A stretch of 64,000 nucleotides of DNA, taken from positions 64,001 through 128,000 of the forward strand of contig CAXXVK010000072.1 of NCBI GenBank assembly GCA_963676915.2, written 5' to 3'. Position numbers and translations under genes: made by a program. The first letter of the stretch is position 1, and each line of letters opens with the position of its first letter. Positions 23,866 through 29,426 of this stretch are shown here, one piece after another. The notes under the pieces are model-generated. The model worked only from the letters and a program-made list of their open reading frames with translations, was not told the origin of the DNA and searched no databases. The DNA comes from Myxococcota bacterium (lineage in GTDB: Bacteria > Myxococcota_A > SURF-8 > G963663525).

Positions 23866-24717
23866 TTACCGTAACCCCATCTTTTCCTTAACCCAACTGA
23901 CCTCAAGATGGGTTAGATAGATGGCCCCGGTCAACGCCACCATGCAAGCCCCGGTGGGTAATTCCCAAATGAAGGAGAGATAATATCCCATTCCTGCCGA
24001 AAACAAGCCTATGATCACGGCGATGGTGAATGCACCCAACATGGAGCGACCCATCCGCAGCCCGGTTAGCGCTGGAAAGATGGTAAACCCAAAGACAGGC
24101 AGTGCTCCAATCGCACGGGTAGCGATGGCGATCATAAGGGCGAAACTCAAATAGAGCAGGATTTCGTACCGTAGGACGGGGATAGCGCTGGCACCCGCAG
24201 AGTCGGTGTCGTAACTGGAAAAAAGAAAGCGACGATAAAAGAGGAAATGTACTAAACCGACACATAGTGCCGCCGTAGTGACATAGACAATCTGCACCGT
24301 TTCTACCATGACGGCGTTTCCGAATAGCAGGCTCGATACGTCGTGGAGATCCTGACGGATGAATCCGCCCAAAATCAGGACTGTTGCTGCCGATAAAAGG
24401 TAAGCGACGACGGTTGCCTGCCCGTTATCACGACGGGGTCCGGCGAAGTAGACTGAAGCCAGACCCGCGAATAGCAACGACATCCACGTCGGATCGAAAA
24501 CGTTTCTTGTTCCGGTGTGGCCAAGCCAGTCGCCGAGGAGAAATGCGGCCACAACCCCCACCGACGATACCTGAGTCAGCGCCAATGGGACGTAGGTTAC
24601 ACGTTTGAGTACGACCCAAACCCCAAGATAAGAAAGCGCCGCTGCCGAAATCAGGGCAACGATCATCGCGTCACGCCAGACGAAACTGGACTCCCAGAAT
24701 GAAACGGTTTCCATCAT
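23866..24717 (-). CDS. Zn/Mn ABC transporter permease (ZnuB/MntB-like)
   Basis: SYLGVWVVLKR, SLLFGN, IATRAIGAL, SFIWELPTGACMV. ATGA overlap with the ATPase gene at 24714-24717. Confidence 0.85.
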   Translation of the reverse strand: MMETVSFWESSFVWRDAMIVALISAAALSYLGVWVVLKRVTYVPLALTQVSSVGVVAAFLLGDWLGHTGTRNVFDPTWMSLLFAGLASVYFAGPRRDNGQATVVAYLLSAATVLILGGFIRQDLHDVSSLLFGNAVMVETVQIVYVTTAALCVGLVHFLFYRRFLFSSYDTDSAGASAIPVLRYEILLYLSFALMIAIATRAIGALPVFGFTIFPALTGLRMGRSMLGAFTIAVIIGLFSAGMGYYLSFIWELPTGACMVALTGAIYLTHLEVSWVKEKMGLR

Positions 24718-25478
24718 GGCGTTCCTCCTACAGCGTGAACCAGGATATCTTCGCCGTGTCGATCCACCTGGATCGGACGTCCGTACGCAGAGGAAAGGCG
24801 TTCGTCGGTCAGCATGTCGTCCATCTTTCCCGTGTCGAAAAGGTCGGCGTCTTTGTTGATCAGACACAGGTGATTCGCAACGGATACGACGGAACCGATA
24901 TGGTGGCCGATCATCAGCACCGTGATACCGGTGCTTTGGTGGTGTTTTTTGAGAAAGGTAAGGATGTCGGTTTCACCGGGAAGATCCATTCCTGTGGTCG
25001 GTTCGTCGAGAACCAGTACGTCCGGGTCGCTGGCCAGGGCACGAGCCAGAAGGATTCGTTGCTGTTGCCCGCCGGACAACGAAGCGAAGGGCTGTTTTTC
25101 TGCGGCTCCCATGCCCAGTCGCTCGATTTCTTCCTGCACTCTCTTTCGATCTTCGGTGGAGGGACGTTTTCCCCAACCGATGCGATCCGTACGGCCCATC
25201 ATCGCCACATCGAAGGCGGTCAATGGGTAGTCCGAGTTCAATAGGTGACGTTGGGGTACATAGCCGAAGCGCGGTTTTCCCAACGGATAGCGCACGGCTC
25301 CTGAAACCGGTTTTAGAAGTCCCAAAATGGTTTTCACGAGCGTGGTTTTGCCTGACCCGTTGGGACCGACAATGCCCCAGACATCGCCTTCTTCCACCGC
25401 CAGGGTGAACGGGCGCAGAAGCGCCCGTTCGTAACCGATGGCGGTATTCGTCATTTCGATTCGTTTACGTTCGTTCAT
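24714..25478 (-). CDS. Zn/Mn ABC transporter ATP-binding protein (ZnuC-like)
   Basis: GPNGSGKT, GYVPQ, LSGGQQQR, LDEPTTG. Confidence 0.9.
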   Translation of the reverse strand: MNERKRIEMTNTAIGYERALLRPFTLAVEEGDVWGIVGPNGSGKTTLVKTILGLLKPVSGAVRYPLGKPRFGYVPQRHLLNSDYPLTAFDVAMMGRTDRIGWGKRPSTEDRKRVQEEIERLGMGAAEKQPFASLSGGQQQRILLARALASDPDVLVLDEPTTGMDLPGETDILTFLKKHHQSTGITVLMIGHHIGSVVSVANHLCLINKDADLFDTGKMDDMLTDERLSSAYGRPIQVDRHGEDILVHAVGGTP

Positions 25479-25479
25479 T

Positions 25480-26202
25480 CTACCGGTCTTCGTGTTCTTC
25501 ACCGATTTCAAGAATCAGGATTTGCACTTGTTCAGCCTCGTTTTCACCGAAGCGGATGATCTGTGGTTTTACCGATCCGCTGTCATTGGTGATTTCCACA
25601 TGCCAGACTTCCTTGAAGTCCCCCGGACAGTCGGAGTTTTCACCCTCGTTGTGGGCTTCGAGTTCGTTTTCTTCGGCATCCAGGAATCCATCGACAATTC
25701 CAACGGTATCAATGAAAACAGCCACTTCGCCCGTTTCTTGACCGGGAAAATGGACAAAGTTTTCGGAGCCGGTTGTCAACTCGATTTGCGCCAGATGTTC
25801 CAAATCCACATGGGCGTTCGAAAATTCATCGAAGGAGGAAACCGCCGAGACTTCTTCAGGCGTGTCGCCCAGATGTTCGCAAGCGTGCTGCTCGAGATCC
25901 TCGGTTTCCTGTGAATTGTCTTCATTGTCGCCGCTGCAGCCCTGTTGCAGACAGTATTCCGCACCGCCGATTTCGGTCGGTTCCTGGTCGGAAAAGCAGT
26001 GGCATTCGTTTCCATGGCTATGTCCGTCCGGTCCGCAGGTGTCGATGTCTTCGATAGGAACGCATTTCGTGCCTACAAGCAGTTGTGTCTCGTTGTCGCA
26101 GGTCGGGCAGGTTATTTCGTCACCATCTTCCGTTGCGCAGGATGTAGCAAGGATGACCAGGACGAAGGAAAGAAAGACAGCGCTAAGTATTTTAATTTTC
26201 AC
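25480..26202 (-). CDS. Cys/His-rich acidic lipoprotein within the metal-uptake operon
   Basis: GTG at 26202 after AAGGAG. Lipobox LATSC, CPTC, CGPDGHSHGNECHC, EQHACEH. Confidence 0.75.
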   Translation of the reverse strand: MKIKILSAVFLSFVLVILATSCATEDGDEITCPTCDNETQLLVGTKCVPIEDIDTCGPDGHSHGNECHCFSDQEPTEIGGAEYCLQQGCSGDNEDNSQETEDLEQHACEHLGDTPEEVSAVSSFDEFSNAHVDLEHLAQIELTTGSENFVHFPGQETGEVAVFIDTVGIVDGFLDAEENELEAHNEGENSDCPGDFKEVWHVEITNDSGSVKPQIIRFGENEAEQVQILILEIGEEHEDR

Positions 26203-26221
26203 GAGAATTCTCCTTTTGATG

Positions 26222-27121
26222 TTAAGGCGTTGCCAGCAGGGTGGCGATACGGTCGAATTTATCCCAGATCGTTTCCATGCCGGGTTCGGCACCTACCATG
26301 GAAGGCATGATGACCAACATCGCCCCGGCTTTTTCGGCGAAGATCTTCGACAGGTTCGTTGGATGGTAGATTTCCTGAAGCACGAAACGTACGTTTTCGG
26401 ATTTGACCTTGTTCAGCAGTTTCGATACGTGGGCCGGACTGGGAGGAATTCCGGGAATCGGCTCCAATGATCCGACCTTGCGAACGCCCAGCCAATCCAG
26501 CAAATAGACCCAGCTTTCGTGGTACACCACAACGTTCGCACCTTTAAGGGGAGCTAAGGCCGTTTTCCATTGTGCCGTTTTCTTTTGGTATTTCGTGTCG
26601 AAAGCGGTCCATCGTTCTTTGTAGTAGGAAGCACCATCCGGGTCGAGTTGCACGAGTCGCCGATGTATTCCGCCTGCGATGCGGTACAATTCATGTGGGC
26701 TGGTGTAGTAATGCGGATTGCCCGCGCCGTGAATATCTCCCATCGAGCGATCGGGATTCGCGACGACATCTTTGGCTTCGATCAACGTCGAGGCGTCCAG
26801 GTATCCCGGTTTTCCAGGGTGTATGTCGCCGTTTCTCGCTTGAGTCAGCAGTACGGGTAGCCAGCCGTCTTCCAAACCCATGCCGATGAGGATCAGCAGA
26901 TCGGCTCGGTTGACTTTGAGAATCAGCGAGGGTTTGGCATCTACGAAGTGCGGGTCTTGCGTTCCCTTGATGAGCGATTCGGCTTCTACACGTTCTCCAC
27001 CGAGTTCGGTGGCCAATGCGGCGAAATCAGGTAAGGTTCCCACCACTCGCAGTTTGGCCGAGGCGAGTCCCGGAAAGCTCAGCACGATCAGGATAGCTGT
27101 CAATAAGGTCCAGCGTTTCAC
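26222..27121 (-). CDS. Metal ABC transporter substrate-binding protein (ZnuA/TroA cluster A-I)
   Basis: QDPHFVDAKPS, GMGLEDGWLP, GDIHGAGNPHY, YHESW, EPIPGIPPS. Signal peptide. Confidence 0.9.
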   Translation of the reverse strand: MKRWTLLTAILIVLSFPGLASAKLRVVGTLPDFAALATELGGERVEAESLIKGTQDPHFVDAKPSLILKVNRADLLILIGMGLEDGWLPVLLTQARNGDIHPGKPGYLDASTLIEAKDVVANPDRSMGDIHGAGNPHYYTSPHELYRIAGGIHRRLVQLDPDGASYYKERWTAFDTKYQKKTAQWKTALAPLKGANVVVYHESWVYLLDWLGVRKVGSLEPIPGIPPSPAHVSKLLNKVKSENVRFVLQEIYHPTNLSKIFAEKAGAMLVIMPSMVGAEPGMETIWDKFDRIATLLATP

Positions 27122-27124
27122 GGT

Positions 27125-28381
27125 TCACCTCCTTAGAATTTGTGGGCCATGTGCTCGCCCACACCGATTTCGAGTTGTAAAAAGGCAGCATGATACAGGT
27201 TGTGATGCTCTTCCTGTCCTGCGTCGTATTGCAGGCGGATTTTGGAAAAAATGCGTCGGCATGAACGTCACTGCCGTTCCACCACGCCACTGCCTTTCCG
27301 GAATTTTTTCTGCGTCCGGTGTTTCTCCTGTGAGAATGTCGGTGTAGTCGCCTCGGACGCCGACCATCCAACGGCGAGTCAACTGGACATCCAGTTGGGC
27401 GTATCCACCATGATCCTGAACGAGATCCCCCGGAACCTGTGTCATTCTCATCAGGTATTCGACGGTCAACCCCACGGCAAGCGCGTCCATGCCCGAGGTG
27501 ATCGGTCGCCACTTGAGATAAAGGTCCGTTCCGTACAAGTCCACTCGATCATCCGGGACATAGGGGCTTTGTCCCCAGGCACCGGAAAGTCCCCAGTCGA
27601 GCGACCAGTTGTCGGTAATGTCGAAGAAGTTGTTGATTCGTGCGAGATACACGAAGTCTTCCAGGCCATCCAGCCTTCCGTTTTCCGTCAGATCGACGGT
27701 GCCGAAAGAGCCGGAACGAAACGCCGATTCGGGTTTGGTATCCATCATCTGCCCGCCGACCGTCATGTACCAGGGAAGCGGAAGCAGGAACGATAGCTCG
27801 GTGCCAAGCCCGCTAAAATGTTCTTCCCCCATGAAGCGGCTATGGGAAAGAGGTGGATTTACGTAGTTCCAGCTATGGAGATGTTGTGGGTTCTGGCGGC
27901 CGAAAGCGGCGTTCATGTATCCGGCCCTGACCTGCATGTTGATCGGAAGCGATAGCGAGGTGATGTAGGCTTCTTCCAAGTGCAAGTGGGAAATCTCAAA
28001 ATTCATGTCGAAACGAAAATAAGGATCGACGGCCCCGGAAACAGCCATTTCCAGACCTTGGAGCGTAAATCCGTTTTCATCGATGGCATGACCGCTCTGG
28101 CGGATGTGATCATCGCCGAAAAACCAGCCGAATCCGACATCAACGATGAAGCTGATATCCGGTATGAAGCTCGCCGCCGTGGGAGTGACGTTTTCCCGAA
28201 GGGTGTCGCTGAGACTCGGAGGATTTTGGGGTGGTTCACTCGTTTCACTGGCATCGGCCTGAATGGCTTCGGCGAAGTCGGGATCTATGGTTTCGTTTTC
28301 TTTGGAAAAGGCCGGCAGAGTCCATAGCAGTACCAGAGGAAGAGCCAGCAGGCTTCCCCAGGCAAGTGTAGATTGTCGCAT
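27125..28381 (-). CDS. Outer-membrane beta-barrel metal (zinc) uptake protein. A 1-nt frameshift at ~27250 puts the true stop at 27133
   Basis: PDISFIVD, AVDPYF, LEEAY, FGRQNPQHLHSW. Removing one T gives ...PTHFSKIRLQY...LQLEIGVGEHMAHKF*, a His-bearing barrel C-terminus. Confidence 0.75.
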   Translation of the reverse strand: MRQSTLAWGSLLALPLVLLWTLPAFSKENETIDPDFAEAIQADASETSEPPQNPPSLSDTLRENVTPTAASFIPDISFIVDVGFGWFFGDDHIRQSGHAIDENGFTLQGLEMAVSGAVDPYFRFDMNFEISHLHLEEAYITSLSLPINMQVRAGYMNAAFGRQNPQHLHSWNYVNPPLSHSRFMGEEHFSGLGTELSFLLPLPWYMTVGGQMMDTKPESAFRSGSFGTVDLTENGRLDGLEDFVYLARINNFFDITDNWSLDWGLSGAWGQSPYVPDDRVDLYGTDLYLKWRPITSGMDALAVGLTVEYLMRMTQVPGDLVQDHGGYAQLDVQLTRRWMVGVRGDYTDILTGETPDAEKIPERQWRGGTAVTFMPTHFFQNPPAIRRRTGRASQPVSCCLFTTRNRCGRAHGPQILRR

Positions 28382-28456
28382 AGCGCAATACTCCCCGTAT
28401 TGAAGTGGAGGGAATCGTGGGCGACGTGTCGCCCCGTCTTTAGAATTTACGCAATC

Positions 28457-28906
28457 TTAGACGGAGGGCGGGGAGTTTTTCGGTGCAAGGGAAAGTTGAG
28501 AAACGAAAAGGAAAACGGGCTTTTGCACGGTTCCGACGGACTCGTCCGAGACATCGATGCGTTCGCAGTCCGTTGGGCAGGACATGGCATTCGATGTTTG
28601 AATGAGTTGGGCGAGGACAGTACAGACATCGTGCGGTTCTGAAAACCGATCCGAATGCGATTGGAGTGAGGTCTCGTACCCCGCTACAGGACGAGAAAAA
28701 CCAACTCCGGTTTTCCAGATCGTATCGCCAAGATTGTGATTGTCGTTGGTTGGGTGATGGTGATGAACGTGCTCGAAGCGCTGGTGCTCGATGCACCAGA
28801 CATGTTCGTGACGAGCGAACAAAAACGGCGTTACCAGCCAGTTGGCCACGAAAACGGCCACCAGCAGGACGGCGAAAGTGTTCTTTGAGGTTCTCGTCAT
28901 CAACAT
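28457..28906 (-). CDS. His-rich exported leader protein ending in APKNSPP (DUF2946/CruR-like candidate)
   Basis: N-terminal TM/signal, HEHVWCIEH...HVHHHH, HDVCTV, C-terminal LAPKNSPPSV. First gene of the metal operon. Confidence 0.6.
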   Translation of the reverse strand: MLMTRTSKNTFAVLLVAVFVANWLVTPFLFARHEHVWCIEHQRFEHVHHHHPTNDNHNLGDTIWKTGVGFSRPVAGYETSLQSHSDRFSEPHDVCTVLAQLIQTSNAMSCPTDCERIDVSDESVGTVQKPVFLFVSQLSLAPKNSPPSV

Positions 28907-29078
28907 AAAGCCAATATCCGATCCAAGTAGGTACAGTTAAGCACTGTTAACTTAGACTCGCTTTATGCAGGTTGCAAGACACAAAAGCGTTTTTTTCCAA
29001 CTTTTGTGTAAAGATTACATTTTTTTCTTTGTCGTAGGAGAAAGTAAATGACGTTTTTATAAGAAGCAAAGTGCTTGA

Positions 29079-29426
29079 TTATTCGGCTTCTTCTTCCGTT
29101 TCATTTTCGGTTACTTCGGTTTCCTCTTCATCGCCTTCGTAGGGGTAAGGACCGTATTCGGTGGCATAAGGTTCATCGTCGATTTCGGCTTCCGCTTCAT
29201 CGATGTCGCCTTCGGCTTCGGGATTCTGGAGGCACCAGCCGTCATCACTGCAATAGTAATCCTCACCACCCCATTCGATGCACTGCTCGTCATCGGTACA
29301 GGCAGGACCGGGACCGTACATGACGTTTCCCTCCTCGTCGTCTCCACAACCGGAAAACAACACCGATGCAGGCAACAGCAGCATGAAAATCGACGCCAGC
29401 CAGCCGCGAATGGTCATGAGGATCAT
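29079..29426 (-). CDS. Small acidic Cys-containing lipoprotein with two XYGP motifs
   Basis: GAAGGAG SD, lipobox FSGC, VMYGPGP, TEYGPYP, four further Cys. Confidence 0.75.
   Translation of the reverse strand: MILMTIRGWLASIFMLLLPASVLFSGCGDDEEGNVMYGPGPACTDDEQCIEWGGEDYYCSDDGWCLQNPEAEGDIDEAEAEIDDEPYATEYGPYPYEGDEEETEVTENETEEEAE

Follow-up and report, generated by a model that had tools for sequence, protein, structure and literature searches.

A candidate metal-sensing arrest leader before a porin and zinc importer operon, and its family in the Myxococcota

The subject of this report is a small gene and its operon in a 64,000-nucleotide (nt) stretch of DNA from a Myxococcota bacterium (assembly GCA_963676915.2, contig CAXXVK010000072.1, positions 64,001 to 128,000 of the forward strand), called the window below. 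The gene encodes 149 amino acids (aa) and stands first in a locus, with all genes on the minus strand, that continues with an outer-membrane porin and a zinc-type ATP-binding cassette (ABC) importer. An earlier prediction from the sequence alone (the original prediction) took it for a leader whose nascent peptide senses metal and controls the porin by ribosome stalling. With moderate confidence we read it likewise, as a regulatory leader of the CruR/CutF kind, in which arrest at a Pro-Pro (PP) tail would unmask the porin gene's Shine-Dalgarno (SD) sequence under metal control. The signal or transmembrane segment, the HEHVWCIEH, HVHHHH and HDVC motifs and the SPP two residues before the stop, all described at that time, are found in the minus-strand open reading frame (ORF), whose parts are as follows (positions are those of the window):

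28457..28906, minus strand: leader gene (149 aa, then TAA); its Myxococcota family is unnamed and placed at the edge of DUF2946 (ORF and translation)
28811..28894, minus strand: predicted membrane helix or signal anchor at the N-terminus, about residues 5-32 (AlphaFold2 (AF2) helix 5-32; block predicted local distance difference test (pLDDT) 91-97)
28769..28804, minus strand: ligand motif 1, H35-V-W-C38-I-E-H41-...-H46, putative ligands (alignment of 150 sequences)
28754..28771, minus strand: HVHHHH run, residues 46-51, within a variable, often His-rich stretch, the run itself being unconserved (alignments)
28622..28633, minus strand: ligand motif 2, H92-D-V-C95, putative ligands, counterpart of the DUF2946 CxxC
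28466..28486, minus strand: APKNSPP, residues 141-147, proposed arrest or pause motif; S, V and TAA come after PP

The short N-terminus of the leader carries basic residues, R5 and K8, by the start of the hydrophobic stretch. Together with the modelled helix 5-32 they would supply the export signal or N-in/C-out anchor expected of DUF2946 proteins, and a hydrophobic segment is present in 32 of 32 aligned relatives. HEHVWCIEH occupies residues 33-41 (HEHVWCIEH...EH spans 33-46), with a beta-hairpin predicted at 35-38/43-46. The middle of the protein is poorly conserved; a short helix comes after HDVC (92-95), then a second unconserved stretch, then LAPKNSPPSV and the stop. About two thirds of the chain has no sequence conservation and is predicted to be disordered (AF2 blocks at pLDDT 48-58), the confident parts of the model being the anchor helix and the hairpin and helix around the ligand motifs. 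Scans of the window leader against Pfam and NCBIfam give no match (for Pfam, none at E <= 0.1).

A single-sequence search with the leader recovers 11 proteins at E <= 1e-3 among 1.84 billion representatives. A profile built from these 11 finds matches in 8 of 10 genomes of the same order and in 55 of 401 sampled Myxococcota genomes, and retrieves 398 clusters (90% identity) at E <= 1e-3. The best 120 of the 398 clusters have no precomputed Pfam domain, are named solely "hypothetical protein", and come from Myxococcales, Polyangiales or "Deltaproteobacteria" assemblies. An NCBIfam scan of 32 family members gives noise only, and a search for related loci from an alignment of six members yields one locus in a genome and a weak one in a metagenome.

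Conservation is read from an alignment of 150 sequences (129 database proteins and 21 locus translations, with the most divergent leaders, L016-L018, left out). C38, H41, C95, P142, P146 and P147 are present in all 150; H35 (148), H92 (147) and H46 (137) are near-invariant, as are A141, K143 and S145. The HVHHHH run is not kept among relatives, yet the region after motif 1 has a median of 10.8% His (range 0-26%, 32 relatives). The sensor had been proposed to be His-based, which needs amending: the conserved ligand positions, HxxCxxH...H and HxxC, are both His and Cys. The seven-residue tail motif reads APKNSPP in 101 leaders and APKTSPP in 27, the remainder showing 11 rarer forms; APK[NTQSHAG]SPP describes 143 of the 150, and all 13 variants end in PP, after which comes one residue (119 leaders) or two to eight (31 leaders). 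Conservation of the SPP tail and its position, proposed earlier as a check on the leader, is thereby borne out, since a PP-ending tail is found in every aligned sequence and all 32 loci end in [AS]-P-x-x-[SGP]-P-P plus 1-8 residues. Across these loci the Ser codons of the tail are TCC, TCG, TCA, TCT and AGC, and each Pro is written with all four codons; such free synonymous use means that the constraint acts on the peptide. Outside its motifs the leader evolves fast, same-genus orthologues having 46% identity in the leader versus 81% in the porin. One sub-clade (L024, L027, L032, L034) has the tail S-P-[AIG]-x-S-P-P, with C-x-W-[LM]-[ST]-W at the central Cys and a linker in which DLPPP, a second Pro-rich element, is conserved.

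The distance from C95 to the first Pro of the PP is 49-56 residues in the 150 leaders and exactly 51 in 98 of them; in the window protein it is 51. Over 32 diverse loci this linker, which has no sequence conservation, varies in length with a standard deviation of 2.0, versus 5.0 for the C38-C95 interval. A similar spacing is seen in DUF2946 (PF11162), whose prototype is the Bordetella pertussis protein CruR (Bp2923; Roy et al. 2022, PMC9426467), with its arrest in vitro shown in PMC12992588. CruR is described with CXXC at 90-93 and RAPP at 139-142, positions from which a Cys-to-Pro distance of 51 can be worked out, and its regulation is reported to be impaired when the spacing is altered by 5 (PMC9426467). 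In canonical CxxC...RAPP DUF2946 proteins of the window's own phylum the first Cys precedes the first Pro by 50-53 residues (n = 10, five of them near-identical). Judged by its sequence, the window leader has the conserved Cys-to-Pro-Pro spacing of DUF2946. It lacks the CXXC given as the conserved motif of the family (Roy et al. 2022, PMC9426467), H92-D-V-C95 having one Cys where canonical members of the same phylum have CxxC; it also lacks RAPP, its tail being NSPP, with the Pro-Pro and its position kept and Arg-Ala not.

Profile comparisons place the family near DUF2946 through some of its members. The two best matches to the PF11162 hidden Markov model (HMM) in the 401-genome sample are leader-family members (L070 and L071, 28.5 and 27.8 bits, above the gathering score of 23.7 bits), whose proteins carry HxxCxxH, HEHC and an ...APKTSPPA end. 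Six of 32 leader members score below threshold, at 16-22.8 bits over almost the whole profile; the same HMM finds nothing in the window's genome, nor at leader loci of the same order. An hhalign comparison with canonical DUF2946 gives a probability of 59% (E 9e-5, 24 columns) and aligns C95 with the first Cys of CxxC, the canonical profile being shallow (the search for canonical relatives gave 5 close sequences). In ESM Atlas the first ranks go to unnamed Myxococcota clusters (0.96-0.97), and rank 15 (0.93) goes to a cluster in which 15% of the members are DUF2946, which we take as a lead only. The kinship with DUF2946 put forward in the original prediction is thus upheld by these relatives and by the spacing, and is missing from the window protein itself, whose membership is transitive only, through relatives. 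We conclude on these sequence grounds that the family is apparently a diverged branch at the DUF2946 edge, in which CxxC became HxxC, RAPP became APKxSPP, and a second ligand motif was added.

Between the leader and the porin lies a spacer whose length, 75 nt, and whose two hairpins are as first described. Its elements, with those of the adjoining leader codons, are:

28382..28456, minus strand: spacer between leader and porin, 75 nt (sequence)
28469..28476, minus strand: predicted anti-SD ACUCCCCG in codons N144-S145-P146 (minimum free energy (MFE) fold and pair probabilities; SD pairing P = 1.00)
28419..28434, minus strand: hairpin GGGCGA-CACG-UCGCCC, arms 28434-28429 / 28424-28419 (-9.3 kcal/mol alone, -12.3 extended)
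28408..28414, minus strand: second, weaker predicted anti-SD UUCCCUC in the spacer (duplex -9.7 kcal/mol)
28386..28402, minus strand: hairpin CAAUAC-GGGGA-GUAUUG (-4.2 kcal/mol; not in the MFE fold)
28391..28396, minus strand: porin SD GGGGAG (sequence)

Folding of the 121 nt at 28360-28480 gives -35.1 kcal/mol (z = -3.05), which 1 of 200 shuffles equals. The MFE fold pairs ACUCCCCG, which belongs to the N144-S145-P146 codons AAC-UCC-CCG and sits 9-17 nt before the leader stop, with CGGGGAGU, the porin SD, in a duplex of -16.5 kcal/mol; UUCCCUC pairs with the SD once the leader 3' end is made unavailable. The SD is accordingly predicted to be occluded, as had been proposed, mainly by the N-S-P codons of the leader; the small hairpin at 28386-28402, to which occlusion had been ascribed, is rejected as the main occluder (-4.2 versus -16.5 kcal/mol). 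Both of the closest relatives have a hairpin in the position of the one at 28419-28434, and the SD helix is common to three close relatives, with one compensatory change of a G-C to an A-U pair. Among 7 loci with an unambiguous SD, five pair it with the KxSPP codons (P 0.61-1.00). In these five the native codons, ranked for SD pairing among synonymous variants, are tied best of 384 in two (one being the window leader), in the top 8-9% in two and in the top 1.4% in one; since three of the five loci are close kin, they amount to about three independent observations.

Rfam has no family for the leader or spacer in 28250-29150 at E <= 1; the sole match at that threshold, mir-302 (19.8 bits, E 0.7, 29001-29066, plus strand), is taken as noise. 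A promoter and terminator scan finds no sigma-70-like promoter and no terminator-like site in the spacer. Upstream of the leader, 73-103 nt before its ATG, lies a perfect 9-bp inverted repeat, ACACAAAAG-N13-CTTTTGTGT in the minus-strand reading (28979-29009), which could be an operator; inspection by eye shows no obvious sharing of it with the upstream regions of 6 relatives.

The leader might stall and yet act on another step, if the stalled ribosome kept Rho off the spacer and the output were Rho-dependent termination instead of SD unmasking. CruR provides a precedent (PMC9426467), several distant relatives have spacers of 122-227 nt, and SD unmasking in silico is incomplete. The window spacer, however, is just 75 nt long, is not C-rich over G (C21, G19) and is mostly occupied by the stable hairpin and the SD pairing, and the codon choice favours that pairing. 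A C-over-G skew of the spacers, as a hint of Rho utilization (rut) sites, is not consistent among the loci, start codons in the high-GC relatives being uncertain. We hold a Rho-based output to be decidedly unlikely, with the proviso that termination and SD unmasking are not mutually exclusive.

It is also conceivable that the coupling is passive and senses nothing. With the anti-SD 9-17 nt before the stop, its helix would be opened by each ribosome that terminates there; the PP tail and the His/Cys motifs would then be unrelated to regulation, and zinc control would be transcriptional, through a Zur-type repressor, for which three Fur-family genes in the genome offer candidates. Left unexplained by such coupling are the amino-acid constraint on APKxSPP, with its free synonymous variation, and the fixed Cys-to-Pro distance in common with CruR. 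No Zur-like box is recognised upstream of the leader, nor one shared among the 7 upstream regions, on inspection by eye only and with no motif-discovery tool. We give passive coupling very little credence, and continue with the leader as a metal-responsive arrest switch, whose targets would be the following genes:

27133..28381, minus strand: porin-like outer-membrane barrel gene, 418-codon ORF, ATG at 28381 (AF2 barrel and OprP/OprO matches of an orthologue)
26222..27121, minus strand: ZnuA-type substrate-binding protein (PF01297, 1.5e-40)
25480..26292, minus strand: 270-aa lipoprotein, very acidic, Cys/His-rich, unassigned, between the znuA and ATPase genes
24714..25511, minus strand: ABC ATPase, ZnuC/MntA/AztA type (PF00005, ABC_tran)
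23866..24867, minus strand: ABC-3 permease, ZnuB type (PF00950, 1.3e-30); the annotated start is probably too far upstream

The locus had been called a Zn/Mn uptake operon, a name with which the ZnuA, ABC_tran and ABC-3 matches agree. It has the features of a Cluster A-I (ZnuA-type) zinc ABC importer, namely PF01297, PF00950, PF00005 and the three His positions. Among solved structures, Synechocystis ZnuA (2OV1/1PQ4, E 1.4e-20) comes closest to the binding protein, in which the His of DPH, NPH and (Y/F)H(E/P)SW (YHES in the window) are kept; the His of DPH, NPH and xHxSW are residues which we take to be the zinc ligands in the Synechocystis structure. Because these three His positions of the solved ZnuA are kept, the operon points to Zn over Ni or Co, so that of the three metals originally suggested zinc is retained and the other two are less favoured. 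We read the operon as an importer of zinc that has a porin of its own. The 270-aa lipoprotein, with no family above threshold in Pfam or NCBIfam, may be a zinc-binding accessory protein; three relatives from the same order or genus (L063-L065) also have it between the znuA and ATPase genes, and in L066 it comes straight after the leader. Beyond the permease lie unrelated genes (glycosyltransferase-like, nitroreductase, polysaccharide synthesis).

The 418-aa porin ORF has no Pfam or NCBIfam match. A same-genus orthologue, modelled by AF2 with 17 aligned relatives, forms a barrel of about 16 strands (pLDDT 78.6, predicted template modelling score (pTM) 0.77) whose best solved matches are OprP and OprO (E 7.6e-12 and 1.2e-11; template modelling (TM) score 0.57-0.58), in keeping with the outer-membrane role already assigned to this gene; two relatives give sub-threshold Pfam matches to Porin_O_P or BBP2. 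Three His are invariant in the porin family, H166, H168 and H409 (numbering of the same-genus orthologue, L011:2010-3251, from the alignment), and sit in N-x-x-H-x-H-x-W and a C-terminal G-x-H-G-A-H-x-F; they suggest a metal-selective channel. The porin frame breaks near 27246, at the 3' end (in tblastn with the same-genus orthologue, aa 23-377 fall in one frame and 359-414 in another). Because a contig assembled independently, from the single public run that contains this DNA, is one base shorter at 27246 (depth ~4), the break is probably an assembly error and not the mark of a pseudogene. The runs listed with this sequence include none of RNA.

Gene order in relatives ties the leader to outer-membrane channels. 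An HMM built from 12 porin orthologues finds the porin directly downstream of the leader in 21 of 32 loci. When 20 loci are extended to about 10 kb, 14 have the order leader, porin, ZnuA-type protein, sometimes lipoprotein, ATPase, permease (in L058 the ATPase is unfound with the query used; L060 and L061 end inside the permease), and three have a TonB-dependent receptor in place of the porin set. The remaining extended loci, one each, have a lipoprotein directly after the leader, small MORN-type proteins, or a shortened porin beside IS630-like ORFs. Since a porin or a TonB-dependent receptor succeeds the leader in extended loci, the leader goes with outer-membrane import channels, like CruR. 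In two of the three receptors (L056:760-3411; L057:5125-8046, minus strand) a TonB C-terminal domain, PF03544, is fused N-terminally, an unusual architecture, and L057 has an ExbB gene further downstream. In genome G005 (L002/L012/L067) the porin is cut short after ~26 codons, IS630-like transposase ORFs adjoin it, and no ZnuABC genes lie within 10 kb. Two of the L016-L018 leaders are followed by small proteins of ~170-180 aa, one matching a MORN_2 repeat (L016), and the L018 leader by a lipoprotein, not a porin.

The same facts can be read to mean that the leader works as a protein of the envelope, where it would bind zinc in the periplasm as a membrane-anchored accessory (such as a chaperone or a partner of the porin) whose APKxSPP is a protein-contact motif, the RNA pairing being ordinary translational coupling at a fixed ratio. 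Its six conserved candidate ligands, the confidently modelled anchor helix, hairpin and helix around the ligand motifs, its constant partnership with an outer-membrane channel, and the invariant His of the porin itself would all be expected of such a protein. It is harder to see why ~2/3 of its chain should be unconserved and predicted disordered, yet have a linker length held to ~2 residues, and after PP both the number of residues (1-8) and their identity vary freely, unlike a C-terminus that is recognised. Furthermore, the only characterised relatives are described as acting as nascent chains, the mature protein being undetected (PMC9426467; bioRxiv 10.1101/2022.11.11.516240). We regard a role as envelope protein as unlikely.

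If the gene is instead an arrest leader, its action can be pictured as follows. The N-terminal helix would anchor the nascent chain in the inner membrane, N-in/C-out, with the ligand motifs on the exported side. There H35-x-x-C38-x-x-H41...H46 and H92-x-x-C95 would bind metal before the chain has left the ribosome; the metal is most likely Zn(II), for which two Cys with as many as four His make a plausible ligand set. The C-terminal APKxSPP would slow or arrest peptide-bond formation at Pro146/Pro147, so placing the strongest anti-SD (AAC-UCC-CCG) in the E and P sites of the paused ribosome; with that sequence held there, the porin SD would be left to weaker competitors and the porin translated. 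Upon termination two codons later the helix would re-form and sequester the SD again. At the pause C95 would be ~51 residues from the peptidyl-transferase centre, just out of tunnel and translocon, since a chain must be roughly 51 residues long to get past the two. Metal bound between H92/C95, as they emerge, and the membrane-proximal motif could pull on the chain and so alter the length of the pause. As the downstream system is an importer, we favour the polarity of CruR, in which zinc would shorten the pause and turn the porin down. By analogy, then, the leader probably acts as a translational zinc switch, in which we infer the arrest, the identity of the metal, the polarity and the compartment of sensing.

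A bolder form of this idea, which we offer only tentatively, is that the leader is the first zinc-responsive nascent-chain sensor, a transmembrane force gauge: periplasmic Zn(II) would cross-link H92/C95 to HxxCxxH...H, the pull would release the ribosome, and the porin's ribosome-binding site would close again. If this is true, one seven-residue motif is selected both as peptide and as RNA across a whole phylum, and the same leader device serves porin-ZnuABC operons and TonB-dependent receptors alike.

A number of observations weigh against the leader as an arrest switch of the DUF2946 type. The window protein has no match to the PF11162 HMM at E <= 0.1, and 59% over 24 columns in hhalign is a weak profile link. 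SPP after N, T or Q is not among the motifs at which arrest has been demonstrated; where RAPP has its Arg the leader has none, with a Lys one residue further upstream, and R139A is reported to abolish the arrest of CruR in vitro (PMC12992588). The most divergent leaders (L016-L018, genomes G008 and G007) keep C95 and an APK/APM-x-SPP tail and lack C38 and H41, and a stable protein that binds metal could make equal use of the six conserved ligand positions. On the RNA side, Ser-Pro-Pro codons are pyrimidine-rich and so by nature complementary to any SD. In the other two of the seven loci pairing of the SD with the KxSPP codons is 0.29 and 0.00 (the latter locus uses the codons of an 8-residue tail instead), and their native codons stand at the median. 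If one masks the bases that a ribosome holding Pro146 in its P site would cover, the SD is still predicted to pair, through weaker partners, at 0.97, 0.83, 0.66, 0.82, 0.76, 0.66 and 0.43 in the seven loci, so unmasking is quantitative at best, a matter of degree. Finally, the polarity and the site of sensing rest on analogy with CruR and CutF, which differ in both.

The build of the leader is nevertheless that of CruR and CutF, as the original prediction held: an export anchor, a metal-ligand motif and a PP tail just before the stop, in the first gene before an outer-membrane channel. With CruR it has in common a length of ~145-149 aa with an export signal, a position before an outer-membrane importer, a ligand motif 51 residues before the first Pro, a tail 2-3 residues before the stop, a mostly disordered prediction and, as proposed here, the logic of an uptake system repressed by its own metal. 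The two differ in ligands (HxxC plus an extra HxxCxxH...H against CxxC), in tail (APKNSPP without an Arg beside the small residue against RAPP), in spacer (75 nt with predicted SD pairing against 162 nt with Rho termination as described for CruR), in target (a zinc-type ABC operon with porin against what is described as a copper-regulated TonB-dependent transporter), and in that the window leader has no Pfam match.

CutF is known from Rhodobacter capsulatus, where it belongs to cutFOG (PMC9973294; bioRxiv 10.1101/2025.02.05.636593), and CutF-like proteins have been collected with a filter of <150 aa, PP in the last 15 residues, a signal at the N-terminus and, within 1000 nt downstream, a gene on the same strand (Ozturk et al. 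2023; bioRxiv 10.1101/2022.11.11.516240). The window leader passes this filter (149 aa, PP at 146-147, anchor helix, porin 75 nt downstream); its RNA structure is likewise predicted to shield the next gene's ribosome-binding site, and its exported ligand motif could sense the periplasm. CutF, in contrast, is described with CxxxC and a PPP tail and as controlling a detoxifying oxidase that metal switches on, whereas the window has its predicted anti-SD within the proposed arrest codons and an importer as the target. CutF is reported to have a polarity opposite to that of CruR and to sense the periplasm, CruR needing no signal peptide (bioRxiv 10.1101/2025.02.05.636593). The CutF authors group 2,540 CutF-like proteins (5,334 in the final list) by sequence into 29 clusters, whose sites consist of Cys, of His or of both; most of the proteins come from Pseudomonadota and Bacteroidota, and frequently they lie upstream of genes for metal homeostasis (bioRxiv 10.1101/2022.11.11.516240). 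The running text of that paper, cluster figures and lists apart, makes no mention of Myxococcota, ZnuA, zinc or porin; the leader family may already be among the 29 clusters, unremarked.

As for the tail, RAPP-like (RQH) arrest peptides are known upstream of Sec/YidC genes (Sakiyama 2021, PMC7897499; Fujiwara 2024, PMC10987492), with RSPP, QAPP and HAPP on record among them (PMC10987492). These too are small exported proteins with X-small-Pro-Pro near the C-terminus, X in the leader family being N, T, Q, S, H, A, L or G, then Ser. The comparison is by motif, not by sequence; the leader family is tied to metal uptake and the Sec/YidC peptides to protein localisation, and NSPP and TSPP are not among the motifs in the parts of those texts covered. 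Literature searches for APKNSPP-type motifs (APKNSPP, PKNSPP, APKTSPP, KNSPP) found no bacterial paper, and those combining zinc with arrest peptide, upstream ORF or ribosome stalling gave no bacterial zinc leader among the matches listed. What is known are copper-sensing DUF2946 leaders; what is probably new here is the stall motif, the ligand set, the phylum and probably the response to zinc.

Metal-sensing arrest leaders have so far been shown by experiment for copper only (CruR, CutF), and a phylum-wide family before zinc importers would extend the principle to zinc with the same 51-residue ruler. The family would offer a natural test of what that ruler measures, and would add a non-Arg X-Ser-Pro-Pro sequence to the candidate arrest motifs. 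It would also give about 400 protein clusters, so far unnamed and "hypothetical", a likely role, and flags an OprP-like unnamed porin with invariant His as the probable zinc channel of the Myxococcota.

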